In this document: positions 9,748-51,440 of the stretch, in pieces
Numbering within the stretch: position 1 is the first letter of the stretch
Layout: each line of letters starts with the position of its first letter
Assembly: GCA_035543515.1 (NCBI GenBank)
Contig: DATKJS010000044.1
Coordinates: 1 to 63,707 of the forward strand
Reading direction: 5' to 3'
DNA from: Terriglobales bacterium
GTDB lineage: Bacteria > Acidobacteriota > Aminicenantia > Aminicenantales > Saccharicenantaceae
Length of the DNA stretch: 63,707 bases
Notes under the pieces: generated by a model
The model's input: the letters and a program-made list of their open reading frames with translations, nothing else
What the model was told of the DNA's origin: nothing
Database searches by the model: none
Program-made: the position numbers and the translations under genes

Positions 9748-9775
9748 ACCCGACATGACTAGAACGAGGACGATC

Positions 9776-14149: not shown

Positions 14150-14210
14150 CCTTTTGGATTTGGCTCCGTCTTGTCCTTGGCCCCCTGTTTATAATAGAAT
14201 CTGCCGACCC

Positions 14211-15686
14211 ATGAAGTTCGACGCGCTATTGGCCAAGAAGTCCCTCGGGCAGCTGACCCGGGAAGCCTCCTCCGAGGCCTCCGGCCTGAAGAGGGTCCTC
14301 GGGCCGTGGCACCTCATCTTCCTCGGCGTCGGGGCCATCGTCGGCGCGGGCATCTTCGTCATGACCGGCCACGTCGCCGCCCAGTATTCCGGCCCGGCCG
14401 TGACCCTCTCCATCGTGCTCGCCGGCCTGACGTGCGCCTTCGCCGGGCTCTGCTACGCCGAATTCGCCTCGCTCATCCCCATCGCCGGCAGCGCCTACAC
14501 CTACGCTTACGCGACACTCGGCGAGATCTTTGCCTGGATTATCGGCTGGGACCTCATCCTGGAATACTCGGTGGGGGCTACGACGGTCGCGATCGGCTGG
14601 TCCGGGTACGTCGTCAGCTTTCTCAAGGGCATCGGCCTCAACGTCCCCGCCGCCCTGGCCGACGCGCCCTTCGCGTTCGACCCGAAGTCCGGCGCCTGGA
14701 CGAGGACCGGCGCCTGGATCAACCTTCCGGCCCTCCTGGTGATCCTCCTCATCACCTACGTCCTCGTGCGGGGCATCCGGGAGTCGGCGACGGTCAACTC
14801 GGTCATCGTCTTCCTCAAGATCGCCATCATCCTCATCTTCATCGGGGCGGGTCTCTTCTTCATCAAGCCGGGCCTGTGGAAGCCGTTCATCCCCCCGAAC
14901 CAGGGACAGTCCGGCTTCTTCGGCTGGAGCGGGATCCTCCGCGGGGCCGGGGTGATGTTCTTCGCCTACCTCGGCTTCGACGCCGTCTCGACGGCGGCCC
15001 AGGAGGCCAGGAACCCGAAACGCGACATGCCCATCGGCATCCTCGGCTCGCTCTTCGCCTGCACGGCCATCTACATCGTCTTCTCCCTCGTCCTCACGGG
15101 CGTCGTCCCCTACACCCAGCTCAACGTCCCCGCCCCCGTGGCCGTGGCCATCGACGCCATGCGGCTCTTCTGGCTCTCGCCCCTGATCAAGATCGCCGCC
15201 ATCATCGGCCTCATGTCGGTGATGATCGTCCAGCTCATGGGCCAGCCGCGGATCTTCTACACCATGGCCAAGGATGGGCTCCTGCCGCCGGCCGCGGCCC
15301 GGGTCCACCCGAAATACGGCACACCCTATGTTACGACGATCGTCACGGGCCTTGTCGTCAGCGTTGCGGCATCGCTCCTGCCCATGGGCATCGTTGGAGA
15401 GCTCGTCAGCATCGGGACGCTCTTCGCCTTCGCCATCGTCTGCAGCGGCGTCCTCGTCCTCCGCTACGCCCGCCCCGACATCCCCCGGCCCTTCAAGACC
15501 CCCCTCGTTCCGTTCGTCCCCCTCCTGGGCATTTTTTCCTGTGTCTACCTGATGACCCGCCTGTCCAAGGACACCTGGGTCCGCCTCATCGCCTGGATGG
15601 CGATCGGGCTCGTCATCTATTTCACCTACGGCATCCGCAAGAGCCGGCTGCGGCGTCCGCCGGCGGCCGGCCCGGATGCGACCTGA
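14211..15686 (+). CDS. APC-family amino acid permease (cationic amino acid/YfnA-like)
   Basis: [44 protein letters not shown]. Start ATG 14211. Confidence 0.92.
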
Positions 15687-15699
15687 CCGAGGAGGCCCC

Positions 15700-17202
15700 A
15701 TGAGCTCCAATCCCGCCCCCGCCCCTCCGGCCCCCCCCGCGGCCGGGGCCCGCGAGTTCAAGCGCGAGATGTCCCTCTTCGACTCCATGATGATCGTCAT
15801 GGGAGCGATGATCGGCTCCGGCATCTTCATCGTCAGCGCGGACATCGCCCGGACCGTCGGCTCGGCGGGCTACCTCCTGCTCGTCTGGTTCATCACCGGC
15901 GTCGTGACCATCATCGGCGCCCTGAGCTACGGCGAGCTGGCCGGGATGATGCCCCATGCCGGCGGCCTCTACGTGTACCTCCGCGAGGCCTACAACCCCC
16001 TGACCGGCTTCCTCTACGGCTGGACGACCTTCCTCGTCATCCAGACGGGGACGATCGCGGCCGTCGGCGTCGCCTTCGCCAAGTTCACCGGAGTCCTCAT
16101 TCCCTGGTTCCGCGAGGACAATGTCCTCGTGACCGTCCTCGGCCTGAAGGTCTCGGCCGCCCAGCTTCTGGCCATCGCCAGCATCGTCCTCCTGACCGCC
16201 CTCAACATGCGCGGCCTGAGGACGGGCAAGACGATCCAGGGCCTCTTCACCGTGACCAAGACGCTGGCGCTCACGGGGCTCATCCTGCTCGGGTTCATCT
16301 TCGGGGCCAACGCTGCGGCCGTCAAGGCCAATCTGGCCGGGTTCTGGAAGGCGAGCTGGACGCACCTCGCGAGCGGCGGCGGCATCGCCTCCGTCGAGCC
16401 GCTCTCGGGGCTGATGGTCGTGGCCGCGATCGGGGCGGCCATGGTCGGCTCGCTCTTCGCTTCGGACGAGTGGTACACGGTGACCTACATCGCCGGCGAG
16501 GTCAAGAACCCCAAGCGGAACATCCCCCTCAGCCTCGTCCTCGGGGCCGGCATCGTCACCCTCCTCTATTTCCTGGCCAACGTCGCCTACGTCACGATCC
16601 TGCCCGTCCACGGCACCCCGGGGGCGGCCGACGTCGTGGGACGGGGGATCCAGTTCGCCACGGCGGACCGGGTCGGCACGGCGGCCGCCTCGATGATCTT
16701 CGGCTTGCCGGCGGCCGTCATCATGGCGGTCCTGATCATGATCTCGACCTTCGGCTGCAACAACGGGCTGATCCTGTCCGGGGCCCGGGTCTATTACGCC
16801 ATGGCCAAGGACGGGCTGTTCTTCAACGCGACGGGATCGCTCAACAAGAAGTGCGTGCCGGGCACGGCTCTCGTCGTCCAGTGCGTCTGGGCCAGCCTGC
16901 TCTGCCTGTCCGGGAGGTACAGCGACCTCCTCGATTACGTCGTCTTCGCCGTCCTGATCTTCTTCGTCCTCATCGTCAGCGGCATCTTCATCCTGAGGAA
17001 GAAGAAGCCCGACGCCGAGCGCCCCTACAAGGCCTGGGGCTATCCCGTCGTCCCGGCCATCTATATCCTGGTCGCGGCGGCCATCGCCGTCGACCTCCTC
17101 GTCTTTAAGCCAAAGTACACGATCCCGGGCCTGGCCATCGTCCTTCTCGGCATCCCCGTCTATTTCGTCCGGAAGGCCCTGGCCAAGGCGCCCGCGGATT
17201 GA
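15700..17202 (+). CDS. APC-family amino acid permease (LAT/SteT-like)
   Basis: GAMIGSGIF, LSYGELAGMMPHAGG, AGEVKNPKRNIP, GARVYYAMAKDG. SD GGAGG before ATG 15700. Confidence 0.92.
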   Translation: MSSNPAPAPPAPPAAGAREFKREMSLFDSMMIVMGAMIGSGIFIVSADIARTVGSAGYLLLVWFITGVVTIIGALSYGELAGMMPHAGGLYVYLREAYNPLTGFLYGWTTFLVIQTGTIAAVGVAFAKFTGVLIPWFREDNVLVTVLGLKVSAAQLLAIASIVLLTALNMRGLRTGKTIQGLFTVTKTLALTGLILLGFIFGANAAAVKANLAGFWKASWTHLASGGGIASVEPLSGLMVVAAIGAAMVGSLFASDEWYTVTYIAGEVKNPKRNIPLSLVLGAGIVTLLYFLANVAYVTILPVHGTPGAADVVGRGIQFATADRVGTAAASMIFGLPAAVIMAVLIMISTFGCNNGLILSGARVYYAMAKDGLFFNATGSLNKKCVPGTALVVQCVWASLLCLSGRYSDLLDYVVFAVLIFFVLIVSGIFILRKKKPDAERPYKAWGYPVVPAIYILVAAAIAVDLLVFKPKYTIPGLAIVLLGIPVYFVRKALAKAPAD

Positions 17203-17592: not shown

Positions 17593-17940
17593 ATGGACAT
17601 CAGGACCCGGGACCACCAGGGCATCGTCGTGTTCGACATCGACGGGGAGGTCACCATCTCGACCATGCCGCAGCCGACCCTGCACCAGCTCATCAAGGAC
17701 CAGCTCGAGCGGGGGAAGCGGGACATCCTGCTCGACCTGAAAAAGGTCGATTTCATCGACAGCTTCGGCATCGGCGAGCTCCTGGCGAGCTACGTTTCGA
17801 CGCAAAACCTGGGGGGGAAGCTCAAGCTCTGCCACGTCTCCAGAAAACTCTTCCTCCTCTTCCAGATCACCAGGCTCGTCACCGTCCTCGAGATCTATGA
17901 GGATTGCGACCGCGCCCTGAAGAGCTTCGGCACGCCTTGA
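17593..17940 (+). CDS. STAS-domain anti-sigma-factor antagonist (RsbV/SpoIIAA-like)
   Basis: ILLDLKKVDFIDSFGIGELL with the conserved phospho-acceptor Ser (DS), GGKLKL, ITRL. Confidence 0.92.
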   Translation: MDIRTRDHQGIVVFDIDGEVTISTMPQPTLHQLIKDQLERGKRDILLDLKKVDFIDSFGIGELLASYVSTQNLGGKLKLCHVSRKLFLLFQITRLVTVLEIYEDCDRALKSFGTP

Positions 17941-17987
17941 ATCCCGCCGGGCCGGGGGAGGGGGGACGGCCGTTGGACGAGGGCCGG

Positions 17988-20537
17988 ATGCACGCCTTCT
18001 TGCGCAGGCTGCGCGTCGACGTCCGGCCGGACGAGTCGCGGGCGGCGGCCTTCCTCTTCCTCTACTTCTTCCTCATCACGCTCACCTTCTCCGTCATCAA
18101 GACGGTCAAGGAAAGCCTCCAGATCAGCGTCAACCCGCGCTCGTGGTGGGTCTTCGACCTCGGCACGGCGGTGCTGATCGGCTTCGCCGTCGCCGTCAAC
18201 ACCAGGCTCCTCAACCGCCTGCCACGTCGGAAATACTCGTCGCTGACCCTAGGCTTCTCCGCCGGGTGCCTGGCCCTCTTTTGGTACGCCTTCGACCTCT
18301 ATCACCGGCGGATCTATCCCTTCCCGGTGCTGCTCGTGTTCGTCCAGAGCCACCTGAACCTCTTCATCTACGCCTTCAGCTTCTGGTCCGACGTCTTCAT
18401 CGCCATGACGATCACCCAGTTCTGGATCGCCGTCAACGACATCTTCCATCCCCACCAGGCCAAGCGGCTGGTCGGCTTCCTGGTGACCGGAGGACTCCTG
18501 GGCGGGATTGCGGGCTCGGCTATCGCCTGGAGCCTGCCCAAGCTCGTTGCCCCGCACTATCTCCTTCTTGTTTGCCCGGCCATCCTCCTCCTGATGATCG
18601 CCGTGGTCGGCCTCGTCCACGGCGAAGGGGAGAGGCTCCGGGGAGGGACCGAGGCCGGGTCTCGGCCGGCCGGCGCCGGCGTCGGCTTCCTGGAGAGCCT
18701 CCGGACGGTGCGCGGCGACCGCTATCTTCGCATCCTCGCCGGCGTCCTGGCCTCGGCCGTCCTCGTCGGGCAGATCATCAATTACCAGTTCAAGTTCGTC
18801 GTCAAGGCCCAGGGATGGAACGACGCGACACGGACCTCGTTCCTGGCGATGTTCTTTTCCGGCGTGCTCGTCGTCTCAACCCTCTTCCACCTGTTCGCCA
18901 CGGGCCGTGTCCTGAGACGCTTCGGCATCCGCGTGGCCCTGCTCGTGGCCCCGGTCGTCCTCATCCTCGGCACGGTGCCGGTCTTCTTCCTGACGATCGT
19001 GACGGCCGCCGCCGTGCCGACGGCGGCCGGCCTCCTCTGGGCCTCCCTCCTTCGCGGCGCGGACAAGCTCTTCGACACGACCATGAGCCAATCCGTGCGG
19101 GAGCTCCTCTACATCCCCATCCCGGCCGAGATCAAGTACAAGGCGAAGGTCCTCATCGACATGTCCGTCAACAAGTTCGCCCTCGGCTTCGGCGCGGTCC
19201 TCTATTGGACCCTCTACCGGGCGCTGTCGTTCGCGATGAAAACGCCGGAGGAGCAGGTCCGGACCCTCGGCGTCTTCGTCGTCGCCTTCGCCCTTCTCTG
19301 GATGGGCCTTATCTGGATCATCCACGACGAGTACCTCGGGAAGGTCAAGGCGGACCTGGCCAGGAAATGGCAGGACGGCCATAAGGTCGTCGACGCGAAC
19401 GTCGACATCGGGCTGACGCGGCGCATCGTCGACACCATCCAGAGCCGGGAGAGAAGCGCGACCCTTTACGTCATGAACCTTTATGGGCTCGTCCAGAAGG
19501 AGAAGCTGACGGCGGAGCTCATGGAGGCCATCGGCCTCAGGGGCGAGGAGCTCAAGGCGCGGTCCATGGACGCCCTCCTGGGCGTCGACGGCGAGCCCGC
19601 GTTCCAGGGGATCGAGGACATCATCACCGACAAGGAGTTCGACTCCGTCGTGCGGGAGGTCATGGCCCTGCCGGTCTACAAGGACGTGATGGAAAAGCAG
19701 ATCGGCGACCTCGTCACCGGGAAGAGCGCCTCGGAGGTCGCCCGGATGGAGGCGGCCAAGGCCCTGGGCCTGATGGAGCCGACGCCCGCCGTCATCCGCG
19801 AGCTCGGCCGGCTCCTCCGGGACCCTTCGCCCGAGGTCCTCAACTACGCCCTTCACAGCGCCGCCGCCCATCTCCGGAAGGAGCACGTCCCCGCGATCGT
19901 CGACCTCCTCGAGAACCCGATGACCAGGCAGCTCGCCCAGGATACCCTGGCCGCCTACGGACCGCGGGTCGAGGACGTCCTGAAGAAGCGCCTCCAGGAC
20001 CGGGAGGGTCCTCCCGAGGTCCGCCGGGCCATCCCCGACGTCCTGGCCCGATTGGGGAACCAGAAGGCGGCCGACGCCCTGGTCGCGGAGCTCGTGGCCG
20101 GCGACGAGGTTCTGGAGGCCGGCCTCATCGAGGCCCTCTATAAGGTCCGCGCGAACCATCCGCAGGCCAGCTTCAAGAAGAGGCGGATCGCGGCCGCCGC
20201 CCTCTCCCTGGCCCGCCGAAATGCCGAGGACTACCTGGCCGCGGCCGAGGCTGGGGCCGGCCGGGAGCCCGGGCCAGAACGGCAGGCGGCCATCGACCTC
20301 CGGACCAAGCTCCTGTTCGACCTCCTGACGCTCATCGCCCCGCCCGAGGACGTCGTCAAGGCCTACCAGAACATCCTCCGGGGGACGAAGAAGTCCGTCG
20401 ACTACTCGCTCGAGCTCCTCGACAACATCCTCAACGGGGACCTCAAGGAACTCCTCTTCCCCCTCATCGAGAGCCTGCCGCCGGAGGAGCGCTGCCGCCG
20501 CCTGAGGAAGCCCCTCCGGGCCCCGCGGCCCCGCTAG
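17988..20537 (+). CDS. NTT/TLC-family nucleotide (ATP/ADP) transporter fused to C-terminal HEAT repeats
   Basis: NTT motifs FWIAVNDIFHPHQAKRL..F...GG.LGG and RELLYIPIPAEIKYKAKVLID; C-terminal HEAT-like helices (EAAKALG, LLRDPSPEV, RRAIPDVLARLG). Alternative start TTG 17937. Confidence 0.85.
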   Translation: MHAFLRRLRVDVRPDESRAAAFLFLYFFLITLTFSVIKTVKESLQISVNPRSWWVFDLGTAVLIGFAVAVNTRLLNRLPRRKYSSLTLGFSAGCLALFWYAFDLYHRRIYPFPVLLVFVQSHLNLFIYAFSFWSDVFIAMTITQFWIAVNDIFHPHQAKRLVGFLVTGGLLGGIAGSAIAWSLPKLVAPHYLLLVCPAILLLMIAVVGLVHGEGERLRGGTEAGSRPAGAGVGFLESLRTVRGDRYLRILAGVLASAVLVGQIINYQFKFVVKAQGWNDATRTSFLAMFFSGVLVVSTLFHLFATGRVLRRFGIRVALLVAPVVLILGTVPVFFLTIVTAAAVPTAAGLLWASLLRGADKLFDTTMSQSVRELLYIPIPAEIKYKAKVLIDMSVNKFALGFGAVLYWTLYRALSFAMKTPEEQVRTLGVFVVAFALLWMGLIWIIHDEYLGKVKADLARKWQDGHKVVDANVDIGLTRRIVDTIQSRERSATLYVMNLYGLVQKEKLTAELMEAIGLRGEELKARSMDALLGVDGEPAFQGIEDIITDKEFDSVVREVMALPVYKDVMEKQIGDLVTGKSASEVARMEAAKALGLMEPTPAVIRELGRLLRDPSPEVLNYALHSAAAHLRKEHVPAIVDLLENPMTRQLAQDTLAAYGPRVEDVLKKRLQDREGPPEVRRAIPDVLARLGNQKAADALVAELVAGDEVLEAGLIEALYKVRANHPQASFKKRRIAAAALSLARRNAEDYLAAAEAGAGREPGPERQAAIDLRTKLLFDLLTLIAPPEDVVKAYQNILRGTKKSVDYSLELLDNILNGDLKELLFPLIESLPPEERCRRLRKPLRAPRPR

Positions 20538-20552
20538 GCGGGACCGGCCCGG

Positions 20553-20581
20553 TTGCATTGCCGCGCCTTGTCCTTTAGAAT
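20553..20581 (+). promoter_or_regulatory. sigma70-type promoter for the FHA-GAF-PP2C / RsbW pair
   Basis: TTGCAT-17 nt-TAGAAT. Confidence 0.55.
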
Positions 20582-20598
20582 GGGGGGCGGGAATCCCG

Positions 20599-22275
20599 AT
20601 GGCGGACCTGTTCATCTATCCCAAGGGCGGGGACGCGTTCGTCTTCGCCCTCGGCGCCCAGAAAGTCACCGCCGGCCGGGCCGCGTCCTGCGACATCCCG
20701 CTCTCCGACCAGTACACCTCCGGTTGCCACGTCGCCTTCGTCCCCAAGGACCGCGGCTACGCCGTCCAGGACCAGGGGAGCAAGAACGGGACTTACGTCA
20801 ACGGCCGGCGGATCAGCGGTGAGGTGGCCCTCAGGCGGGGCGACGAGGTCGTCGTCGGCGAGACCAAGATCATCTTCGACCGCGAGTTCCAGACGAACGT
20901 CAAGATCGTCGACGGCACGACCTTCACCCACAGCTCGAACACGATCATCAGCGTCCCGGACATCGTCCGCAAGCCTCCGACGGCGGTCTTCCTCCAGCCG
21001 GTCGCCGGCCGTCCCGAGCCGGGGCGCTATCAGCAGGACCAGAAGTTCCTGGGCGTGCTGAGCGAGGTCAGCCAGGCCCTCATCTACCACATGCCCCTCG
21101 ACAGGCTCCTGGATCACATCATGGATCTCATCACCGGGAACATCCCCATGGATCGGGGCGTTCTCATGCTCCGGGAGGGCCCGGACGGCGAGCTCGTCCA
21201 CAAGGTCGTCCGCGTCTATGACAGCCCCTTGCGCAGCCAGAGCATCCTCGTCAGCCGGACGATCGTCCAGACGGCCCTGGACAGGAACTCGTCCATCCTC
21301 ATCTCGGACATCCAATCGGAGGCGGAGCTCCGGGGACAGGTCTCGGTCGTCCAGGGCCGGATCCACTCGGCCATGTGCGTCCCCCTCTGGAACGGCGACG
21401 CCATCATCGGCCTCATTTATTGCGACCGGGCCGCCCTCCACGGCCCCTTCACCGAGGACGACCTGAGGCTCCTGACGCTCCTCGCCAACCTCGCCGCCAA
21501 CAAGATCGAGAACGCCAGGCTGATCGAGCAGGAACTGGCAAAGGAACGGATCGAACAAGAGCTCATAACGGCGGCCCAGATCCAGAAGAATTTCCTGCCC
21601 AAGGAGGACCCCGTCTTCGAGCCCTTCGACATCAGCGGCGGCACGCGGGCCTGCCGTTATGTCGGCGGGGACTACTACGATTTCATCCCCGTCGACGCGG
21701 ATCGCCTGGGCCTCGCCATCGCCGACGTCTCCGGGACGGGCGTCAGCGCGGCCCTCCTCATGGCTTCGCTCCGGGCCTCGCTCCACTCCAAGATCGGCCT
21801 GACGCGGGACCTGGCCCGGCTGGCCGCCGAGCTCAACGACGACGTCCACAAGAGCTCCGACTCCAACTCCTTCATCTCCTTCTTCTTCGGCCTCCTCGAC
21901 CGCGGGCGGGGGGAGGTCGAGTACGTCAACGCGGGGCATAACCCGCCGCTCGTCGTCGACGCCGCCGGCGGAGTCCGCACCCTCGAGAGCACGGGCTTCT
22001 GCCTGGGGATGTTCCCGGCCGTGAGCTACGAGACGCGGACCCTCCGCCTCGCGCCGGGCGACATCCTGTGCCTTTTTACCGACGGCATCGTCGAGAGCCG
22101 CGACGCGGACAGGGAGGAGTTCGGGGACGAACGGCTGGCCCGCCGCCTTCGGGAATCCGCGGACCTCCCGGCCCGCGACATCAGGGACCGGATCTACGAG
22201 GACGCGTTCGCCTTCTCATCCTGCGTCGAGCCGGGCGACGACATGACCGTCGTCGTCGTCAAGAGGGGCACCTGA
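20599..22275 (+). CDS. FHA-GAF-PP2C (SpoIIE/RsbU-family) Ser/Thr phosphatase
   Basis: FHA GR...SxxH...SKNGTYVNG; GAF SAMCVPLW..D.IIGLIYCD; PP2C VGGDYYD, IADVSG.G..AAL, FTDGIVE, DDMT. Confidence 0.93.
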   Translation: MADLFIYPKGGDAFVFALGAQKVTAGRAASCDIPLSDQYTSGCHVAFVPKDRGYAVQDQGSKNGTYVNGRRISGEVALRRGDEVVVGETKIIFDREFQTNVKIVDGTTFTHSSNTIISVPDIVRKPPTAVFLQPVAGRPEPGRYQQDQKFLGVLSEVSQALIYHMPLDRLLDHIMDLITGNIPMDRGVLMLREGPDGELVHKVVRVYDSPLRSQSILVSRTIVQTALDRNSSILISDIQSEAELRGQVSVVQGRIHSAMCVPLWNGDAIIGLIYCDRAALHGPFTEDDLRLLTLLANLAANKIENARLIEQELAKERIEQELITAAQIQKNFLPKEDPVFEPFDISGGTRACRYVGGDYYDFIPVDADRLGLAIADVSGTGVSAALLMASLRASLHSKIGLTRDLARLAAELNDDVHKSSDSNSFISFFFGLLDRGRGEVEYVNAGHNPPLVVDAAGGVRTLESTGFCLGMFPAVSYETRTLRLAPGDILCLFTDGIVESRDADREEFGDERLARRLRESADLPARDIRDRIYEDAFAFSSCVEPGDDMTVVVVKRGT

Positions 22276-22297
22276 GGGGCCGCGGGAACGGGCCGGC

Positions 22298-22711
22298 ATG
22301 AGCTCCGGGGCAAAGACTCTGACGGTCAAGGCGGACCTTGCGGCCATCGACCGGGCCCGCGAGTTCCTGCGGGACAACCTGCGCGGTCTCTCCCTGGCCG
22401 AGGAGGACGTCCTGAGGATCGAGCTCTCCCTCCACGAGATCCTCGTCAACATCGCCCGCTACGCCTACCCGAAGGGGGACGGCGAGATGTCCCTCCGCGT
22501 CTGGCGCGAGGACGGCACGCTCCGCATGGAGTTCCGCGACCGCGGCGTCCCCTTCAACCCCGCCGAGCGGCCCGCCCCGGACATCGAGGAGAGGATCCGC
22601 CGGGGGGCGAAGGGCGGGCTCGGCATCCACCTCTTCAAGACGCTCATGGACGGCTACTCGTACCGTCGGGAGGGTGCGGAGAACGTTCTGACGGTCTTCA
22701 AAAAGGTCTGA
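22298..22711 (+). CDS. RsbW/SpoIIAB-type anti-sigma factor Ser kinase (HATPase_c_2)
   Basis: ELSLHEILVNIARYAY (N box), FRDRGVPFNP (G1), GGLGIHLFKTLMD (G2). Confidence 0.92.
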   Translation: MSSGAKTLTVKADLAAIDRAREFLRDNLRGLSLAEEDVLRIELSLHEILVNIARYAYPKGDGEMSLRVWREDGTLRMEFRDRGVPFNPAERPAPDIEERIRRGAKGGLGIHLFKTLMDGYSYRREGAENVLTVFKKV

Positions 22712-22720: not shown

Positions 22721-23554
22721 TCAGTAGAGGACGTTGGCCTGCCCGTTCTTCTTGACCAGCTTATCGATCTCGCCCAAGATGAGGTCCCGGCGGATGAGGA
22801 CGGCCTTGATCTCGTCGTCAGTCAGGTAGTCGCCCGTGATGCCCTTGATCCCTTCGAAGGTCAGCGTCTTGACCTTGTCGACGATGGCCCGCGGCAGCTC
22901 GCTCATGAGCTTCGGGCCCTCAGGGTGTTTCTCGGTATAGATGAGGGCCTTAACGAATTTGCCGGAGGAGCGGAAGGACCGGGAATGGTCGATGAGAATC
23001 ATCCGCCAGTCCTTGGTGATGAGGATCTGGTTCTGGTGGCGGTCCTCGTTGGCGATGAGGTTGTCGAAGAACCTCTGCAGGTACGTGTCCCGGTTCCAGC
23101 CGAAGACCTTGTAGGACGGCATCTTGATCTTCTTCTCCTCCCGCTCCTTTAGGGAGATGCAGTCGGTGATCCAGTACTGGAGGGAGCCCCGGTCGCCCTG
23201 GAAGCGCCGCTCGATGGTCGGCGAGACCATGTGGAGCCCGAGCCACTCGCTCATGCGGTAGGCGCAGATCTCGTACTGCCAGCCCTCGACATAGCCCTGC
23301 ATGCGGCCCTCGGCGCTCTTCCACAGGGCGTCATGGGTGACGTCGCCCTTCCGGAGCGTCAGCCTCCAGGGGCTGGTCACGGACTCGGGGCCGACCATGT
23401 GGGACTGGTTGACGATGTCCGCCGTCTTGAGGAACTCCTCCCATTGGGGGAACTGACCGAGCTCGTCGGCCGTGAACTGGGCCAGGAGCGCGGGCGCCCG
23501 GAGAAGGGCCAATCCCGCGACGATGAGGACCACCGTTGCTTTCTTCATTTTCAC
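22721..23554 (-). CDS. Secreted atypical kinase, type II PI4K/FAM20C-like fold (paralog 1)
   Basis: Signal peptide; ALWK, YEICAY, PTIER, GSLQYW, FDNLIANEDRHQNQIL, LIDHSRSF. Confidence 0.75.
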   Translation of the reverse strand: MKMKKATVVLIVAGLALLRAPALLAQFTADELGQFPQWEEFLKTADIVNQSHMVGPESVTSPWRLTLRKGDVTHDALWKSAEGRMQGYVEGWQYEICAYRMSEWLGLHMVSPTIERRFQGDRGSLQYWITDCISLKEREEKKIKMPSYKVFGWNRDTYLQRFFDNLIANEDRHQNQILITKDWRMILIDHSRSFRSSGKFVKALIYTEKHPEGPKLMSELPRAIVDKVKTLTFEGIKGITGDYLTDDEIKAVLIRRDLILGEIDKLVKKNGQANVLY

Positions 23555-23597
23555 CCTCCCGCGAGATCGATTCCTGCCGCGGACGGCCGCGGTCGTC

Positions 23598-24446
23598 TCA
23601 ATCGTAGAGGACGTCCGCCTCCCCCCTGGCCCGGACCATGCCGTCGATCTCTTTGATGAGGAGGTCGCGGCGGGCGAGGAGCGAGCGGATCTCCCGGTCC
23701 GTCAGGGTCTCGCCCACGGCAGTTCCGACGGACTCGAAGGACAGCGCCTTGACCTTTTCATAGAACCAGCGGGGGAGCCGGCTGAAGAGGAACGGGTGCC
23801 CGTCCTGGGCTTTCTTGATGCCGTCCGCCCCGAACATGAGCTTCTCAGTGAACTCCTTGGTCGACCGAAAGGCCCGGGAGTGGTCGATGAGGATCGTCCG
23901 CCAGTCCTCCGTGTAGAGGACGTTCTGCTGGGTCCGGTCCTCGTTGGCGATGAGGCTGTCCCAGGCCCGGGTCAGCCACTTCATCCTCTCGATCCCGGCC
24001 TCGGCTTCCTTGGGGATGGCGATTCCCTGCTCGGCGACCTTGAGAAGGCTGTACTTGTTCTCGGCCCAGAGCGACAGGGCGCCCTTCTTCCCCTGGAACT
24101 CGCGCTCGACCGCGGCGGGGACCATGTCCAGCCCGATGAGCTTGTCGAGGCGGTAAGCGGCGATCTCGTACTGCCAGCCCTCGAGGAACCCGTACATCAT
24201 GCCGCTCGGGTTCTTCCAGAAGGCCCTGCTCTCGAAATCGCCCTTCCTGAGGGTCAGCCGGAAGGGCTTGGTGACGCCCTCGCCTGCCGGCTCGGCCTTG
24301 ACGATCTCGGCCGTGAGGAGGAACTCCTCCATCTGCGGCCGCCGGGCGACCTCCTCGGGCTTGAACTGGCCGCGAAGATCCCCGGGCCTGACGACGAAGG
24401 CCAGGAAAAGAACGACGAGCGCCGCTTCACGCTTCATGGATGTCAC
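23598..24446 (-). CDS. Secreted atypical kinase, type II PI4K/FAM20C-like fold (paralog 2)
   Basis: Signal peptide; AFWK, YEIAAYRLD..IGL.MVP, GALSLW, WDSLIANEDRTQQNVL, LIDHSRAF. Confidence 0.75.
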   Translation of the reverse strand: MTSMKREAALVVLFLAFVVRPGDLRGQFKPEEVARRPQMEEFLLTAEIVKAEPAGEGVTKPFRLTLRKGDFESRAFWKNPSGMMYGFLEGWQYEIAAYRLDKLIGLDMVPAAVEREFQGKKGALSLWAENKYSLLKVAEQGIAIPKEAEAGIERMKWLTRAWDSLIANEDRTQQNVLYTEDWRTILIDHSRAFRSTKEFTEKLMFGADGIKKAQDGHPFLFSRLPRWFYEKVKALSFESVGTAVGETLTDREIRSLLARRDLLIKEIDGMVRARGEADVLYD

Positions 24447-24469
24447 CCCGACCGCTTTCTGTTGCCCGG

Positions 24470-24498
24470 ATTATAGGACCCTTCCTCCCGGAAATCAA
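24470..24498 (-). promoter_or_regulatory. sigma70-type promoter for the tandem kinases
   Basis: Minus strand TTGATT-17 nt-TATAAT, overlapping the upstream NTT stop codon. Confidence 0.6.
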
Positions 24499-25997
24499 GC
24501 CGCGGGTGCCGGATTCCCGTCGGCCGCGGCCTTCCGCCTCTTGTATTCCCCGACGATCTTGAAGCAGAGCGCGATGAGGACGAGGACGACGACGACGTTC
24601 AGCATGGCGTAGCGTTCGATCTTCAAGCCCAGCAGCTGTGTCCCGGCCAGCACGGCCAGGGCCGAAACCGTGTCGCCGCCCCTGACGAAGAAGGTGTCGA
24701 TGGCGGCCTTGGCCTTGTATTTTTCCTCCCTTGGCGTGACCAGGAACAGGGCGGCCTTGGTCGTGTTCTGGAGCGAATAGTCGGTGCCGTTCTCCAGGGA
24801 CTTGACCCAGCGGACGAGGACGAGGACCGCCCCGAAAGAGATCAGGGCATACCCCCCTAGGGCGATCAACGGCAGGAAGAAGAGCGCTCCCCCGACCCCG
24901 ACCCACTTGAAGATGCGCGAAACAAGGAAGAGCTGGATGATCAGGGCGACGAGGTTCGTCAGGAGCTGATAGTTCATGAACGCCCGGTGGATCGATTTCT
25001 CCATGGCCGCGCCGGGCGCGTTCTCCTGGGGAACGGGTGCGCCCCGGGCGCTATCCCCAGCGGGGGAGGCGGCCCCCGGCAGAGCCGCCGTCATTGGCCT
25101 GGAGGCCGTCTTCGAGAGCTCGGTGTTGACCGTGACGGCCGAGATGACGTACTCGCCCGTGGCATTGACGAAATTGTAGAGGCCGATCAGGAGGGCGATG
25201 AAGAGCAGGTAGCGGCTCTTGAACACGAGCCGAAAACCGCCCCCGGCCTTCAGCGGCTGGGCCTGGGCGCGGGCCTTCTCCTCGGAGCCGGCGAGCCCCT
25301 TTTCCCGGTCATCGAGGGTTCTCCGGACATCCCGGCGATGGATGTATCTGGCCAGGCCGATACAGATGAGGAGGACAGTCCCTGCGATGAGCATGAGCTT
25401 GAATTCCCACCGTCCGCCCAGGAGGTCCCTGAGCTTGATGACCACGGGCAGCGTCCCGACGACGCCTCCCAGCGTCGCGCCGAAGGCGATGAGGGGAAAG
25501 GTCCGCTTTCCCTGCTCGTCGGAATAGAGGTCGTTGGCGAAACCCCAGAACTGGGCGATCACGAAATAATTGAAGATGCCGATCCAGACGAAGAAGGCGA
25601 TCCCCATGGTCTTGACGGGGATGCGGCAGAAGCTGAGGCCGTAGAAGATCACGATATTCGAGATGAAGAACAGGGTCGTCCAGGTGATGAGGACGTGCCG
25701 GGGGACCTTGGAGGCCAGGCGGCTGAAGGCCTTGATCACGAAGATGAAGAGGACGGCCTGGGCGCCGCCCAGACAGCTCTTGACCACGGCGGAGTTCTTG
25801 TCGACGAGAAGCAGCGCCTCACGCAGGGGTTTGAGGATGTAATAGGCGACGAGGAGGAGGAAGACATTCAGCGCGAGGAGGAGCGCCTTGGGCGCCTCGC
25901 CCGGCCGGATGTCGGCGAAAAGCCGGAGGAACCCGTAGAGCAGACGTTCCCCCGGCGACCCCGTTCCCGACGCCGTCCTCGCTCCGGCTTCCGCCAT
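24495..25997 (-). CDS. NTT/TLC-family nucleotide (ATP/ADP) transporter, stand-alone
   Basis: YYILKPLRE, FWGFANDLYSDEQGKRTFPLIAFGATLGG, DYSLQNTTKAALF...EKYKAKAAIDTFFVRGGD. Start ATG 25997 with SD GGAGG. Confidence 0.88.
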   Translation of the reverse strand: MAEAGARTASGTGSPGERLLYGFLRLFADIRPGEAPKALLLALNVFLLLVAYYILKPLREALLLVDKNSAVVKSCLGGAQAVLFIFVIKAFSRLASKVPRHVLITWTTLFFISNIVIFYGLSFCRIPVKTMGIAFFVWIGIFNYFVIAQFWGFANDLYSDEQGKRTFPLIAFGATLGGVVGTLPVVIKLRDLLGGRWEFKLMLIAGTVLLICIGLARYIHRRDVRRTLDDREKGLAGSEEKARAQAQPLKAGGGFRLVFKSRYLLFIALLIGLYNFVNATGEYVISAVTVNTELSKTASRPMTAALPGAASPAGDSARGAPVPQENAPGAAMEKSIHRAFMNYQLLTNLVALIIQLFLVSRIFKWVGVGGALFFLPLIALGGYALISFGAVLVLVRWVKSLENGTDYSLQNTTKAALFLVTPREEKYKAKAAIDTFFVRGGDTVSALAVLAGTQLLGLKIERYAMLNVVVVLVLIALCFKIVGEYKRRKAAADGNPAPAA

Positions 25998-26029
25998 CCG
26001 CCCCTCCCTCGGCCGCACGCTCCCGCGTG

Positions 26030-27940
26030 TCAGAATAGGACCGCGGCCTCCCCCCGGGCCTCGACCTGCGTCCGGATGGCGCGGAGGATCGACCCCACCC
26101 TCGCCTCGAGGGCCCGGACCTCCTCCTCGTTCAGGTAGGGGGCGACCAGGCGGCGAACCCCGGCCTTGTCCCAATCGACGAGTTTCCGGTAAAAGGCCCG
26201 CGAGCACCTCTGGATCTCGCACCCGGGGACCGTCTCCGTCACGGGCGCGAAGGCCCTGGAGAAGTCGACCGCCCAAACCCTCTCCGTATTCCTCTGGATG
26301 AGGATGTCACGCTCTCGCTCGGGGCCGCAGGTGTCGGCGACGAGGTTGATGAAGACCCTCAGGTCGGCCATGGTCCGCTCGAAGGCCTCCGGGTCGCCGA
26401 TCGGGAGTCCCTGGCCCTTCCGGGCCGTCTCGGAGAAGGCGTCCTCGACGAAGATCTGGAGGGAGCCCGGGTAACCGTTGATCGTCCGCTCGATGAGCGG
26501 CGGGATGAGGCCCAAGCCGAGGGCCTTGTCGAGGGCGTAGGCGGCGAGCTCGTACTCATAGCTGTCGGCCAGCGGGTCCGGCCGGCGGCGGTCGATGTAC
26601 TTGAACTGGGCCCAGTGCTTGGCCCCGCCGGCCTCCAGCCGGACCTTCCAGGGGTCGGTCCGACCTGCCTCGCCGGGGATGACGAAGGCCGGCGTCGCCG
26701 TCTGCAGGAACCGTTCGACCTCGTCCGCGGCCCCCGGCCCGTTCGCCGTCGGCGAACCGCCGGGAGCCGGCGGCGCCGCTTCCTCGGCATCCGTGTAGTG
26801 GTCGAGCGTCCCGCCGTTGATGATGAGGGCATAGAGACGGCCGCCGTAGAGGGTGAAGCCGATCCCGGTATCGATCATCCAGAGCTTCCCGTGGAAGAGG
26901 GGGATGATGTCCCCGGCCGGCGCGATCGGGCTCCGCGTTTCCCCCATGGCCATGAAGTTGTGGCCGATGACCATCTTCGTCGCCTTGAGGTTGGCCAGGA
27001 TCCGGTCCATGTCCTCCTGGGAGATGGTGTTCTCCATCTGGCGGAGCCACAGCGGGCCTTCGGAGTTGTAGACGAGCTTGGGACGGAACTCCTGCATGAG
27101 GACCCGGGAGTTCGGTCCTCGGAGGGCGAACATCCCCAGTTCCAGCCGGAACGCGTCGTTGAGGTCCTTGAGCTTCCAGGTCGAGAACTGGCGGTTGACC
27201 CCGGCGTGGGCGAAGACGACGTCGTTGATCTTGATGACGACGTTCTTCGTCAGGAGCCATTTTCCATAGGTGTGGTTGAAGTTCTCGGTATAGGCCTGGC
27301 CGGCCTCGTCCATGCCCCTGACCCTCTTGGAGGTCTCGAGGATCTTCTCCCAGAAGGCGCGGTAGCCGGCGTCCTTGGCGAAGTCGGGACCCCCGGGCCC
27401 CAGCCTGGCCCGCTCGGCGGCCGGCAGGCCCGACAGGTATTGCTTCGCCCGGGCCTTCTTGAAGTCGTCGGGAAGGAACGCGTAGAACTGGTCGACGAAG
27501 ACGTACTGCGGATAGTTCAGGGCGATGCCCGTGATCGTCGACTCTTCGTGGTTGCCGAGCAGGACGTGGACCATGCCGCCCGCGGCCGCGGCCTCTTTCT
27601 CCAGGCGCATGAGGAAGTCGAAGATGTCCCTGGCCTTGTCGCCCCGGTCCAGGACGTCGCCAATCTGCACGAGGTGGGTCCTTCCGCCGGTCCAGTGAAG
27701 ACGCTCGTCGACGAGGCCGACCTTCGACGCCTTGAGGATGGTCACGAAGTTGTCGAAGTCCCCGTGGAGGTCGCCCACGGCCACGATCCGCTCGACGCCG
27801 GTCCATTCGCAGGGGATGTCGGCGGCGCGGGTGGCCGGGGCCAGGGCGAGAAGCGCGGCGCCGAGGGACAGGGCGAAGGCGAAACGCCCTCGAAGCCGCC
27901 GGCAAGGTCCGCCCCTTTCAAATGAGAACATCGACGCCAT
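26030..27940 (-). CDS. Secreted Shelph-type metallophosphoesterase fused to a degenerate PI4K-like kinase domain
   Basis: Signal peptide; GDLHGD, GDVLDRG, GNHE, HAG, GHN, IDTG. C-terminal domain AQFKY...YELAAYALD..LGL..IPP..ER...GSLQ...VDFSRAF is homologous to the neighbouring kinases. Start may be 27931. Confidence 0.85.
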   Translation of the reverse strand: MASMFSFERGGPCRRLRGRFAFALSLGAALLALAPATRAADIPCEWTGVERIVAVGDLHGDFDNFVTILKASKVGLVDERLHWTGGRTHLVQIGDVLDRGDKARDIFDFLMRLEKEAAAAGGMVHVLLGNHEESTITGIALNYPQYVFVDQFYAFLPDDFKKARAKQYLSGLPAAERARLGPGGPDFAKDAGYRAFWEKILETSKRVRGMDEAGQAYTENFNHTYGKWLLTKNVVIKINDVVFAHAGVNRQFSTWKLKDLNDAFRLELGMFALRGPNSRVLMQEFRPKLVYNSEGPLWLRQMENTISQEDMDRILANLKATKMVIGHNFMAMGETRSPIAPAGDIIPLFHGKLWMIDTGIGFTLYGGRLYALIINGGTLDHYTDAEEAAPPAPGGSPTANGPGAADEVERFLQTATPAFVIPGEAGRTDPWKVRLEAGGAKHWAQFKYIDRRRPDPLADSYEYELAAYALDKALGLGLIPPLIERTINGYPGSLQIFVEDAFSETARKGQGLPIGDPEAFERTMADLRVFINLVADTCGPERERDILIQRNTERVWAVDFSRAFAPVTETVPGCEIQRCSRAFYRKLVDWDKAGVRRLVAPYLNEEEVRALEARVGSILRAIRTQVEARGEAAVLF

Positions 27941-28053: not shown

Positions 28054-29409
28054 ATGAGCAATCGACTTGGCGATGGAATCCGCGCCGGCTCGAGGGCGGC
28101 GGGGCTCGGAGCGGCCGCGCTCCTCCTCCTGATCCTGGGTCTGGGCGGCTGTTCGCCGGAGCGACGGCCGGCCGCCCCGGCCGCGCCGGTCCGGGTGAGG
28201 ACAGGACTCGAGGTCTTCCTCGAAAGAAACCTCGGGCTGGTCGAGGGAAAGCGCGTCGGGCTCATCACCAACCCGACTGGCATCGACGCCGCGTTCCGGT
28301 CGACCGTCGACCTCCTCGCCCGCAACCCCAAGGTCAAGCTCGTCGCCCTCTACGGGCCCGAGCACGGCGTGCGGGGTGACGCCCAGGCCGGGGAATACGT
28401 CCCGTACTATTTCGACAGGAAGGCCGGGCTGCCCGTCTTCAGCCTCTACGGCCAGTCGATGAAGCCCGAGCCGGGCATGCTCAAGAGGATCGACGAGTTC
28501 ATGCGCTCCTACGACACCCGGTCCGCCGGGAAGGTCCCGGAGAAGGACATGGTCCAGGGGGTCGACGTCATGATCTACGATATCCAGGACGTCGGCACGC
28601 GGGTCTACACCTACATCGCGACGATGGCCTACGCCATGCAGGCCTGCGCGGAGAACGGCATCGATTTCATCGTCCTCGACCGGCCCGACCCGATCGGCGG
28701 CGCGGACGTCGAGGGCCCGGTCCTCGAGTATCCCGCCTACAGCTCGCCCGTCGGGCTCTATCCCGTGCCCGAGCGCTTCGGCATGACCATGGGCGAGCTG
28801 GCCCGGCTGTTCAACGACCGGTTCCTGGCGAAGAAGGCGAACCTGACCGTCATCCCGATGGAGGGCTGGACGCGGGCGATGTGGTTCGACCGGACGGGGC
28901 TGCCCTGGGTCATGCCGTCGCCGAACATGCCGACGCTCGACACCGCGGCCGTCTATCCCGGGTTCGTCGCCTTCGAGGGGACGAACGTCTCCGAGGGGCG
29001 GGGGACGACCCGGCCGTTCGAGCTCTTCGGCGCCCCGTGGGTCGACGGCGACGACCTCGCGGCGAAGCTCAACGGGCTCGGCCTCCCCGGGGTCATCTTC
29101 CGCGGCGCCTGGTTCACGCCCACGTTCTCCAAGTTCGCCGGCCGGCTCTGCGGCGGCTGCCAGGTCCAGGTCATCGACCGCGCCGCCTTTCGCTCCTTCG
29201 AGGCCTTCCTCCAAGTCGTCAAGGCCATCCGCGACGCGGCCCCCGACAAGTTCGAGTTCCACAAGGACTACTTCGACAAGGTCATGGGGACGTCCCGCGT
29301 GCGAGAGGCCCTCGAGGCCGGGACCCCGGTGAAGACGATCGTCGACGGCCTCAAGCCGGGCCTCGACGCCTTCCTGCAGCTGCGCAGACCCTATTTGCTC
29401 TATAAGTAA
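28054..29409 (+). CDS. namZ: Exo-beta-N-acetylmuramidase NamZ family (DUF1343)
   Basis: GKRVGLITNPTG, PEHGVRG, YDIQDVGTRVYTYIATM, LDRPDP, SPNMPT, SEGRGTTRPFE. Confidence 0.92.
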   Translation: MSNRLGDGIRAGSRAAGLGAAALLLLILGLGGCSPERRPAAPAAPVRVRTGLEVFLERNLGLVEGKRVGLITNPTGIDAAFRSTVDLLARNPKVKLVALYGPEHGVRGDAQAGEYVPYYFDRKAGLPVFSLYGQSMKPEPGMLKRIDEFMRSYDTRSAGKVPEKDMVQGVDVMIYDIQDVGTRVYTYIATMAYAMQACAENGIDFIVLDRPDPIGGADVEGPVLEYPAYSSPVGLYPVPERFGMTMGELARLFNDRFLAKKANLTVIPMEGWTRAMWFDRTGLPWVMPSPNMPTLDTAAVYPGFVAFEGTNVSEGRGTTRPFELFGAPWVDGDDLAAKLNGLGLPGVIFRGAWFTPTFSKFAGRLCGGCQVQVIDRAAFRSFEAFLQVVKAIRDAAPDKFEFHKDYFDKVMGTSRVREALEAGTPVKTIVDGLKPGLDAFLQLRRPYLLYK

Positions 29410-47435: not shown

Positions 47436-47996
47436 ATGAAATTCGCCGCCGATTACCTCGAAGACCTGAAAAAGACCTTGGCCCGGCTCGACGCCGCCGA
47501 GATCGGCAAGGCGGCCGCGCTCCTCGGGGAAGCGCGGGACAACCATCGCTCGGTGTTCGTCCTGGGAAACGGCGGCAGCGCCGCCATCGCCTCGCACCTC
47601 GTCGTCGACCTCCTCAAGGGGGCCTCGTTCGGCCGCCGGGAGCGTTTCAGGATCATGAGCCTCTCCGATAACATCCCGACGGTCACGGCCTATCTCAATG
47701 ACGTTGGTCCTGACGCGGTCTTCGTCGAACAGCTCAAGAACTTCGCCCGCACGGACGACGTCGTCATCGCCATCAGCGGCAGCGGCGACAGCCCGAACGT
47801 CCTGGCCGCCGTCGAATACGCGAACGGCATCGGCTGCCGGACGATCGGCATGACCCGGGCGGACGGCGGTGCGCTCCGCGGCCTGGTCGGGCTCAGACTG
47901 GCCGTCCCGAGCGGCCACCTGGGCCGGCTCGAGGACAGCTTCACGGTCATGGCCCACATCCTGGCCTACGCCTTCATGGAGCGGGCCGTCGATTAG
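47436..47996 (+). CDS. gmhA: SIS-domain phosphoheptose isomerase (GmhA-like)
   Basis: GNGGSAAIASH, TAYLND, DVVIAISGSG.SPNV, EDSF..MAH. Confidence 0.85.
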   Translation: MKFAADYLEDLKKTLARLDAAEIGKAAALLGEARDNHRSVFVLGNGGSAAIASHLVVDLLKGASFGRRERFRIMSLSDNIPTVTAYLNDVGPDAVFVEQLKNFARTDDVVIAISGSGDSPNVLAAVEYANGIGCRTIGMTRADGGALRGLVGLRLAVPSGHLGRLEDSFTVMAHILAYAFMERAVD

Positions 47997-51356: not shown

Positions 51357-51440
51357 ATGGCGCGGACGATCATTGGAGTCGGCTTGCTCATTCTGGGAGT
51401 CATGCTTGTCCATCGTCCATCGATGTCCGGCATGCCATAA
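51357..51440 (+). CDS. Putative 27-aa leaderless single-TM small protein / leader peptide
   Basis: MARTIIGVGLLILGVMLVHRPSMSGMP*. ATG lies 9 nt after TTGACA-17-TAGGCT (51319-51347). Confidence 0.4.
   Translation: MARTIIGVGLLILGVMLVHRPSMSGMP

Follow-up and report, generated by a model that had tools for sequence, protein, structure and literature searches.

Two adjacent genes of a peat and wetland Aminicenantes bacterium (Terriglobales bacterium, assembly GCA_035543515.1, contig DATKJS010000044.1) raise the question of whether bacteria might phosphorylate substrates outside the cytoplasm and, if so, where the phosphate donor would come from. The window analyzed here is the whole 63,707-nucleotide stretch of this contig. 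A sequence-only reading had proposed that the two genes are tandem secreted kinases of a type II PI4K/FAM20C-like family with their own promoter. We first tested whether the underlying observations were correct. Both open reading frames were present on the minus strand, which had not been specified before, at 22721..23554 (277 aa from GTG) and 23598..24446 (282 aa from GTG). The likely true starts are the ATG codons at 23548 and 24437, each preceded by a GGGAGG/GGGGTG Shine-Dalgarno-like stretch, giving the 275-aa (paralog A, 22721..23548) and 279-aa (paralog B, 23598..24437) products also found in the protein database. The two proteins were 46% identical over their full length (BLASTP E 3e-83). 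The motifs described by the sequence-only reading were all present in A and B, respectively: ALWK/AFWK, YEICAY/YEIAAY, GSLQ/GALS, DRHQNQ/DRTQQN, and the shared LIDHSR. The metal-binding loop reads IDHSRSF in A and IDHSRAF in B. In an alignment of 50 sequences, K77, E93 and D187 (numbering of A) were invariant, and D169 in the catalytic loop NEDRHQNQ was kept in at least 90% of rows, the exception being a third paralog described below. Across 83 A and 76 B orthologs the Lys, the Glu and both Asp residues were invariant or nearly so. Notably, A has Gln where the +5 Asn of the canonical DRxxxN loop is expected, with an Asn at +4, while the NEDRTQQN loop of B has the canonical spacing.

Signal-peptide features were assessed heuristically. 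A K/R n-region followed by a hydrophobic 10-mer (Kyte-Doolittle mean >= 2.0) was found in 119/120 A orthologs and 118/120 B orthologs, and the residue before the conserved mature N-terminus QF was A, G or S in 193/227 sequences. The predicted cleavage sites are LLA|QF in A, with a signal peptide of about residues 1-22, and LRG|QF in B. A lipobox-like motif was present instead in 26/120 A orthologs. The same features were seen in 104/129 representatives of the wider family. An AcrB RND pump encoded in the window is in line with a diderm context. The promoter-like, sigma-70-type element TTGATT-17-TATAAT was located at 24498..24470 on the minus strand (10/12 matches), about 33 nt upstream of the B start codon, with two such sites found in 6 kb against 0.4 expected. 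A TTGAxx-17-TAxxAT element was found at a similar distance upstream of B in most orthologous loci, 43/54 having at least 8/12 matches, with the -10 end mostly 31-36 nt from the start codon in the closer orthologs and about 40-50 nt in the more distant ones. An Rfam scan of the whole window gave no match. No transcript evidence was found, the only metatranscriptome run holding 4% of the sampled words.

Next, we asked whether the kinase assignment holds. A single-sequence phmmer search of A against the PDB gave only noise (haemagglutinin, L14; E > 0.7). In contrast, a family profile (A1) hit only FAM20A (3.6e-5), FAM20B (1.6e-3) and FAM20C (2.3e-3) among PDB sequences at E <= 0.01, and the alignments covered helix C, the catalytic loop and the metal-binding loop. 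The AlphaFold2 model of A (pLDDT 90.9, pTM 0.88) gave PI3K-gamma (6xrm, E 7.9e-7), PI4KII-alpha (4hnd_B, E 1.1e-6, query-normalised TM-score 0.52) and PI4KII-beta (4wtv_A) as top Foldseek hits, with 196 hits at E <= 1e-3. The interpretation is thus supported at superfamily level, although kinase activity itself is inferred from sequence and predicted structure. No Pfam or NCBIfam model reached its cutoff for A or B. A scored 18.5 bits against 27.1 for PI3_PI4_kinase (PF00454) and 13.2 bits against 26.8 for Fam20C (PF06702), for which B gave no hit. The two proteins scored 13.8 and 16.7 bits against 27 for HipA_2 (PF20613) and 33.4 and 28.5 bits against 172.4 for the SCO1664 family (TIGR03843), and ABC1 also fell below its cutoff. 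CotH (PF08757) gave no hit at E <= 1 for A, B or the phosphatase fusion protein described below, and none among 50 family members at E <= 0.01. Among these 50 members, PF00454 was the most frequent weak hit (20/50, best E 4e-5), followed by HipA_2 (12/50) and FAM198 (5/50), while 1/50 reached E < 0.01 for Fam20C. One distant relative just passed the HipA_2 and Fam20C cutoffs. Hence, we regard these proteins as an unnamed family, with about 4,700 clusters at 50% identity in several phyla. In distant members (11 aligned fusion kinase domains), NxDRNxG and IDHxRxF were invariant and the +5 Asn was present in at least 90%, but the beta3 Lys was mostly Arg. Comparison of A1 with A3 by hhalign (probability 100%, E 4e-61) supports a single family.

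Compared with the FAM20 secretory-pathway kinases and the related FAM198, the A and B proteins share export through a signal peptide and similarity over helix C (EIAAY/F..LD..LG...VPPTV.R), the N-x-DRH catalytic loop and the D-x-x-R-x-F metal-binding loop. They are, however, bacterial rather than metazoan Golgi proteins, are about 250 aa when mature against more than 400 aa, lack the FAM20 N-terminal segment and insertions, and have DRHQNQ or DRTQQN rather than DRHHYE. The type II phosphatidylinositol 4-kinases and the PI3K/PI4K catalytic domains are the best fold matches. Their DRxxxN loop is canonical in B and, as DRNxGN, in most of the family, but not in A. PI4KII differs in being cytosolic and palmitoylated, whereas A and B have no CCPCC motif and carry Sec signals, have IDH instead of DFG or IDN, and lack accessory helical domains. 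CotH and HipA/HipA_2 are bacterial atypical kinases in the Fam20-related part of the superfamily, but neither has a link to a signal peptide, a phosphatase or an NTT.

The sequence-only reading had treated the pair as a stand-alone unit. Inspection of the flanking genes showed instead that A and B belong to a longer conserved gene cluster. On the same strand, the gene at 26030..27940 encodes a 636-aa exported fusion protein in which a signal peptide is followed by a PPP-family (Shewanella-like) protein phosphatase domain (26786..27823) carrying GDLHGD, GDVLDRGD and GNHE motifs. This domain scored 44 bits against 21.5 for Metallophos (PF00149, 4e-11) and matched the Shewanella cold-active protein-tyrosine phosphatase (PDB 1v73/2z72) at E 5e-31, with a Foldseek E of 3e-19 and target-normalised TM-scores of 0.65-0.68, followed by PP5, calcineurin and PP2A in the fold search. 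The C-terminal part (26033..26728) is a third kinase-like domain, paralog C, which keeps the Lys (FKY), the Glu (YELAAY) and a DFS loop. In 57 C-clade sequences a conserved Cys replaces the catalytic Asp (consensus 'vyD.C.N..D'; C538 is nearly invariant), and the best kinase-like fold hits were FAM20A structures (5yh2_B, 5wrs_B, 5wrr), so C is probably a pseudokinase. The fusion is not a frameshift artefact, as about 32 orthologous loci carry the same fusion and about 28 have two adjacent genes, each with its own signal peptide. Signal-peptide features were found in 110/120 fusions, and a twin-arginine-like motif in only 17/120 orthologs, so Tat export was rejected as a general feature.

Between the fusion and B, 32 nt downstream of the former and 57 nt upstream of the latter, lies a gene for a 500-aa NTT/TLC-family nucleotide-transporter homolog without a HEAT domain (24495..25997, minus strand), whose stop codon is overlapped by the promoter-like element. 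It scored 50.6 bits against 21 for Pfam TLC (PF03219), and the NTT motifs FWGFAN[DE] and KxKAAID (here FWGFAND and KAKAAID) aligned to PDB 9j3n. It is, however, only distantly similar to characterised NTTs (TIGR00769, 42.1 bits against 387.2; PDB 9j3n, E 0.012), and nucleotide exchange by this protein is inferred. A convergent operon on the plus strand (17593..22711) ends 9 nt from the stop codon of A and encodes a STAS antagonist (17593..17940), an NTT-HEAT transporter (17904..20537, start uncertain), an FHA-GAF-PP2C/SpoIIE phosphatase (20599..22275) and an RsbW-like HATPase_c_2 kinase (22298..22711). The operon is a candidate cytoplasmic regulator of the transporter, and the RsbW-like gene was conserved next to A in 72/82 loci.

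Within Aminicenantia, the order phosphatase(-C), NTT, B, A was conserved in 82 loci (B 73, NTT 59, phosphatase 56), although this could partly reflect shared ancestry. Outside Aminicenantia, kinase, phosphatase and NTT(-HEAT, -cNBD) recurred in distant lineages in different gene orders and fusions. An adjacent NTT-HEAT, with or without cNBD, was found for 6/10 distant phosphatase-kinase fusions. In a metagenome scan, 30/80 loci had an NTT, and among loci with at least 3 kb on both sides the figure was 9/17, 8 of them directly adjacent and in at least three different gene orders, so that about half of the well-flanked family loci had no NTT nearby. The architectures seen here (NTT, NTT-HEAT, NTT-HEAT followed by cNBD, and the triple fusion) are in agreement with those described for free-living bacteria, including Aminicenantes, where their function is unknown (PMC5381601). 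A term search of that paper did not reveal a link to exported kinase and phosphatase genes.

Taken together, we consider it somewhat more likely than not that A and B are Sec-exported, periplasmic or envelope-anchored enzymes working within a reversible phosphorylation module. In this proposal, the conserved sigma-70-type promoter drives the B-A pair, signal peptidase cuts before the conserved Gln-Phe, and each mature enzyme binds ATP-Mg/Mn through the beta3 Lys/helix-C Glu pair and the IDH Asp and transfers phosphate with the DR-loop Asp as catalytic base. The exported PPP phosphatase would reverse the modification, and C, fused to or encoded next to it, is probably a targeting or regulatory pseudokinase. 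We infer that the NTT exchanges cytoplasmic ATP for periplasmic ADP and so supplies the phosphate donor. Against the proposal, the periplasm probably lacks ATP, and ATP could leak through outer-membrane porins. The transporter may be gated by cytoplasmic regulators, here a STAS/RsbW-like/PP2C partner-switching set and in other lineages a cNMP-binding protein or domain. A and B differ consistently in the catalytic loop (DRH-x-N-Q against DRTQQN) and travel as a pair. They are most likely two active kinases with different substrates or sequential steps. Because the partner phosphatase is of a protein-phosphatase type, a protein substrate appears likeliest. Catalytic activity, ATP supply, reversal and substrate type are all inferred, without experimental data of any kind.

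Other explanations appear less likely. A and B might phosphorylate a lipid, a sugar or a cell-wall polymer, such as LPS or other outer-membrane lipid, exopolysaccharide or a peptidoglycan fragment, as PI4KII does for phosphatidylinositol and FAM20B for xylose. This unlikely alternative draws on the best fold matches being lipid kinases, on FAM20B among the profile hits and on the exo-muramidase gene NamZ (28054..29409 in the window), which lies divergently next to the cluster in 35/82 Aminicenantia loci. NamZ was absent from the module outside one sub-lineage, however, no lipid-binding or membrane-anchoring motif such as CCPCC was present, and the phosphatase is closest to a protein-tyrosine phosphatase. 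Less likely still is a nucleotide-scavenging module, in which the phosphoesterase and the kinase-fold proteins would bind or process extracellular nucleotides or dinucleoside polyphosphates and the NTT would take up the products. Characterised NTTs are importers of ATP, NTPs or NAD (PMC5381601), the phosphoesterase domain has weak similarity to ApaH/PrpE Ap4A hydrolases (E 1e-6 to 5e-3), and C keeps the nucleotide-binding residues but not the catalytic Asp. On the other hand, the phosphatase is far closer to a protein phosphatase (5e-31) than to ApaH (1e-6), the catalytic and metal-binding Asp residues are invariant in A, B and the distant fusions, which points to phosphotransfer, and bacteria usually seem to dephosphorylate nucleotides and import nucleosides.

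The sequence-only reading had also suggested a kinase/activator heterodimer of the FAM20C/FAM20A type. In its favor, A and B were nearly always adjacent in the order B then A (73/82 loci), the pair occurred at extra sites without the rest of the cluster, and A lacks the canonical +5 Asn. Nevertheless, both clades conserve Lys, Glu and both Asp residues, and the clearly degenerate paralog is C. An obligate active/inactive split between A and B is therefore unlikely, with the reservation that this judgement was made without a multimer prediction.

Known periplasmic phosphotransfers appear to use lipid-linked donors, and our literature searches for bacterial periplasmic or Fam20-like kinases and for periplasmic ATP found nothing relevant; a 2026 preprint describes a different, non-secreted PI3K-like bacterial family, SEAE1. 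A more far-reaching and tentative possibility is that many diderm bacteria (Acidobacteriota including Aminicenantia and Thermoanaerobaculia, and by record name Myxococcota and others) run a dedicated ATP-driven phosphorylation system in the periplasm, a bacterial counterpart of the eukaryotic secretory-pathway kinase system. An NTT or NTT-HEAT antiporter would export ATP in exchange for ADP, exported Fam20/PI4KII-like kinases would phosphorylate envelope or extracellular substrates, an exported PPP phosphatase paired with a pseudokinase domain would erase the mark, and cytoplasmic cNMP-binding or partner-switching proteins would gate the ATP supply through the HEAT domain. If true, this would provide the first functional hypothesis for the NTT and NTT-HEAT(-cNBD) transporters of free-living bacteria, whose role was left open (PMC5381601), and could identify the closest prokaryotic relatives of the Fam20/FAM198 kinases, offering a lead on the bacterial ancestry of these secretory kinases.

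Two open reading frames were found on the minus strand, at 22721..23554 and 23598..24446. The likely starts are ATG 23548 and ATG 24437, each preceded by a purine-rich Shine-Dalgarno-like stretch, giving proteins of 275 aa (A) and 279 aa (B) that are identical to the database entries P0001 and P0121, respectively. A and B are 46% identical over their full length (E 3e-83). All motifs listed in the sequence-only reading were present, namely ALWK/AFWK, YEICAY/YEIAAY, GSLQ/GALS, DRHQNQ/DRTQQN and IDHS. The promoter-like element TTGATT-17-TATAAT, also noted in that reading, was located at 24498..24470 on the minus strand, and two such sites were found in 6 kb against 0.4 expected. A TTGAxx-17-TAxxAT element recurred upstream of B orthologs in most diverged genomes, with at least 8/12 matches in 43/54, and the -10 end was mostly 31-36 nt from the start codon in the closer orthologs and about 40-50 nt in the more distant ones. 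We therefore take it to be a real promoter for the B-A pair. Many long ORFs run antisense to or overlap the real genes throughout the window, e.g. 18876..20615 (-), 20575..21939 (-), 23472..24476 (+) and 24987..26138 (+), as is typical of high-GC DNA. Those that were scanned gave no family hits, and they are best treated as artefacts.

The closest relatives are MAGs of Candidatus Aminicenantes, and the sequence itself occurs in wetland and peat metagenomes. The window encodes an RND efflux system (8422..14055, +) with an AcrB-family pump at 10435..14055 (Pfam E 8e-283), consistent with a diderm envelope. The two preceding ORFs (8422..9747 and 9740..10903) may encode the outer-membrane and adaptor components. 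Other genes in the window, a GH106 alpha-L-rhamnosidase (47993..51232, -), a 1,105-aa Kelch-repeat protein (56890..60207, -) and two tandem amino-acid permeases (14154..17202, +), fit a saccharolytic or fermentative lifestyle and are unrelated to the kinase-like pair. A and B each have thousands of homologs, all labelled 'hypothetical protein'. In an alignment of 50 sequences, K77, E93 and D187 were invariant, and D169, N167, H188 and S189 were kept in at least 90% of rows. Next, 216 kinase-like sequences were collected from 82 loci and split by clade. Clade A has the consensus NEDRH.NQ, with the Asn at +4 rather than the canonical +5, whereas clade B has NEDRTQQN with the canonical DRxxxN spacing. 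Both clades keep the Lys, the Glu and IDHSR.F. Hence, both paralogs are under selection as intact enzymes.

To assess export, the N-termini of the orthologs were examined. A positively charged n-region followed by a strongly hydrophobic 10-mer was present in 119/120 A orthologs and 118/120 B orthologs, but not in cytoplasmic control proteins from the window. The mature N-terminus 'QF' is conserved, and the residue at -1 was A, G or S in 193/227 sequences, while the residue at -3 was small or aliphatic in 223/227, which fits signal peptidase I. Notably, 26/120 A orthologs had a lipobox-like motif instead. No twin-arginine motif was conserved. Across the wider family, 104/129 full-length representatives showed the same N-terminal features.

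The AlphaFold2 model of A, predicted from the alignment, was confident (pLDDT 90.9, pTM 0.88). A Foldseek search against the PDB returned PI3K-gamma (7.9e-7), PI4KII-alpha (1.1e-6, TM-score 0.52 query-normalised), PI4KII-beta, Vps34 and others, with 196 hits at E <= 1e-3. In a complementary analysis, a profile of the family searched against all PDB sequences hit only FAM20A (3.6e-5), FAM20B (1.6e-3) and FAM20C (2.3e-3) at E <= 0.01, and the alignment covered helix C (EIAAY.LD..LG...VPPTV.R), the catalytic loop (LI.N.DR..) and the metal-binding loop (.D..R.F). In contrast, curated models all stayed below their cutoffs, with scores of 18.5 against 27.1 for PI3_PI4_kinase, up to 16.7 against 27 for HipA_2, 13.2 against 26.8 for Fam20C and 33 against 172 for SCO1664. 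Across the 50 members, the weak hits were PI3_PI4_kinase (20), HipA_2 (12), FAM198 (5) and Fam20C (1), and CotH was never hit. The placement proposed from sequence alone, 'type II PI4K / FAM20C-like', is thus right at superfamily level, but the family itself is undescribed. An exhaustive profile search found 4,745 clusters at 50% identity with E <= 1e-3, and 710 with E <= 1e-30. Most members have the canonical loop LI.N.DRN.GN and ILIDHSRAF. Source names place members in Aminicenantes, Thermoanaerobaculia, Bryobacterales, other Acidobacteriota, Myxococcota, Chromatiales and Latescibacteria, where they are annotated only as 'metallophosphoesterase' or 'hypothetical'. One distant relative, the 671-aa protein P0247, has two tandem kinase-like domains in one polypeptide (loops LIFNDDRNSGNV and LIYNDDRNTGNV) and just passes the Pfam cutoffs for HipA_2 (29.8/27) and Fam20C (29.4/26.8), so it bridges this family to the curated ones.

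The sequence-only reading missed two further genes that lie upstream on the same strand. The first encodes a 636-aa exported protein (26030..27940), whose N-terminal domain is a PPP-family phosphatase with the GDLHGD, GDVLDRGD and GNHE motifs. This domain is closest to the Shewanella cold-active protein-tyrosine phosphatase (PDB 1v73/2z72, E 5e-31; Foldseek 3e-19), followed in the fold search by PP5, calcineurin and PP2A. The C-terminal domain (26033..26728, -) is a third paralog of A and B, here called C, which keeps the Lys (FKY), the Glu (YELAAY) and a DFS loop. In 57 C-clade sequences, however, a conserved Cys replaces the catalytic Asp, and the best kinase-like fold matches of C are FAM20A pseudokinase chains. 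Three conserved cysteines are present in C, C538 at the catalytic-Asp position and C574 and C579 in PGCEILRCSR, and in an exported domain these may form disulfides or a redox or metal site. The second gene (24495..25997) encodes a 500-aa NTT/TLC transporter homolog that scores 50.6 bits against a cutoff of 21 for Pfam TLC, and in which the NTT motifs FWGFAN[DE] and K.KAAID are conserved against the NTT structure 9j3n. It is nonetheless far from characterised exchangers, scoring 42 bits against a cutoff of 387 for TIGR00769. The gaps between genes are 32, 57 and 49 nt.

Convergent with A, and ending 9 nt from its stop codon, is an operon of four genes (17593..22711, +) that encode a STAS anti-sigma antagonist with a DSFG phospho-serine motif, an NTT-HEAT transporter, an FHA-GAF-PP2C (SpoIIE-type) phosphatase and an RsbW-like HATPase_c_2 kinase. 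A nucleotide-transporter gene thus sits inside a partner-switching operon, and in other lineages a cNMP-binding gene or domain occupies the same position next to NTT-HEAT. On the other side, a NamZ exo-beta-N-acetylmuramidase (28054..29409, +) with a lipoprotein-type signal (LGLGGC) is encoded divergently from the phosphatase-C gene, an adjacency that is conserved in 35/82 Aminicenantia loci but not outside that lineage.

We then asked whether this linkage is meaningful. Within Aminicenantia, 82 loci keep the order phosphatase(-C), NTT, B, A, followed by the convergent RsbW-like gene, with counts of 73 for B, 72 for the RsbW-like gene, 59 for NTT and 56 for the phosphatase, although many loci are truncated. 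C is fused to the phosphatase in about 32 loci, whereas in about 28 it is a separate downstream gene with its own signal peptide, and this fusion/fission pattern argues for a functional link. Some Aminicenantes genomes carry a second B-A pair elsewhere (loci L005, L012 and L013) with its own TTGAC.-17/18-TAT.AT promoter-like site. L005 and L013 show no phosphatase or NTT gene in the locus, and L012 has an opposite-strand NTT/TLC hit but no phosphatase. The pair therefore seems to duplicate as a unit.

The link also holds outside this class. Many family representatives are phosphatase-kinase fusions of 600-800 aa with canonical catalytic loops, and of ten such proteins looked up, six had an adjacent NTT-HEAT gene. 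This gene was downstream in loci L083 and L085, upstream with a cNMP-binding gene in between in L089, L090 and (truncated) L086, and part of an NTT-HEAT-cNBD triple fusion overlapping the phosphatase-kinase gene by 4 nt in L173. A metagenome scan seeded with distant kinase domains returned 80 loci, 30 of them with an NTT. Among loci with at least 3 kb on both sides, 9/17 had one, 8 of those directly adjacent, so that about half of the well-flanked loci have no NTT nearby. In comparison, by our own rough estimate, chance adjacency for a gene present once or twice per genome would be about 1%. At least three gene orders occurred: fusion then NTT; kinase convergent with NTT and a separate phosphatase; and NTT, NTT, cNBD, fusion, kinase. 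The distant domains and the A/B family are one family (hhalign probability 100%, E 4e-61). Large Peptidase_M14 (zinc carboxypeptidase) genes were also seen near family members in three unrelated contigs (L083 14467..17118, L172 1..2761 and L084 9933..10997), and one lies 27 kb away in the window (51373..54306, +), but this may be coincidence.

NTT, NTT-HEAT and NTT-HEAT-cNBD genes were previously shown to be widespread in free-living bacteria, with one Aminicenantes sequence listed and the functions stated to be unknown (Major, Embley & Williams, 2017, PMC5381601). In our literature searches, no report was found of exported Fam20/PI4K-like bacterial kinases or of a periplasmic kinase system. 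A 2026 preprint describes a different PI3K-like bacterial family that is predicted to be non-secreted.

Taken together, computed rather than experimental evidence supports A and B as exported paralogs with a PI3/4K-Fam20-type kinase fold, intact catalytic residues and their own conserved promoter, in a family that is genomically coupled to an exported protein-type PPP phosphatase, to a degenerate paralog and to NTT-family transporters. From this we infer that A and B are active phosphotransferases that use ATP, that the NTT, whose substrate and direction are not established, supplies that ATP by ATP/ADP exchange across the inner membrane, and that the phosphatase-C protein reverses or targets the modification. 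The cytoplasmic HEAT domain, together with cNMP-binding or STAS/RsbW/PP2C proteins, is inferred to regulate the supply. Some observations weigh against this model. ATP in the periplasm is unorthodox and could leak through porins, A lacks the canonical +5 Asn, distant fusions mostly carry Arg at the beta3 Lys position, and no transcript data were found.

The main alternatives are that A and B are envelope lipid or glycan kinases, that the genes form a nucleotide-scavenging and import module, or that A and B form a kinase/activator heterodimer, as suggested in the sequence-only reading. We infer that the substrate is more likely protein than lipid or glycan, because of the type of phosphatase. 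The different catalytic loops of A and B, both conserved, and the occurrence of the pair on its own at other sites (L005, L012 and L013) suggest two active enzymes with distinct or sequential roles. A FAM20C/FAM20A-type split between them is less likely, and the pseudokinase role fits C better.

Hence, the tandem pair described from sequence alone is confirmed, and its interpretation is supported at superfamily level. The finding is more interesting than first described, because the pair is part of a widespread, undescribed module of kinase, phosphatase and NTT. We regard A and B as representing a new exported bacterial family of the kinase-like superfamily, and there is a substantial, although still tentative, possibility that the finding marks a categorically new extracytoplasmic, ATP-fuelled phosphorylation system.
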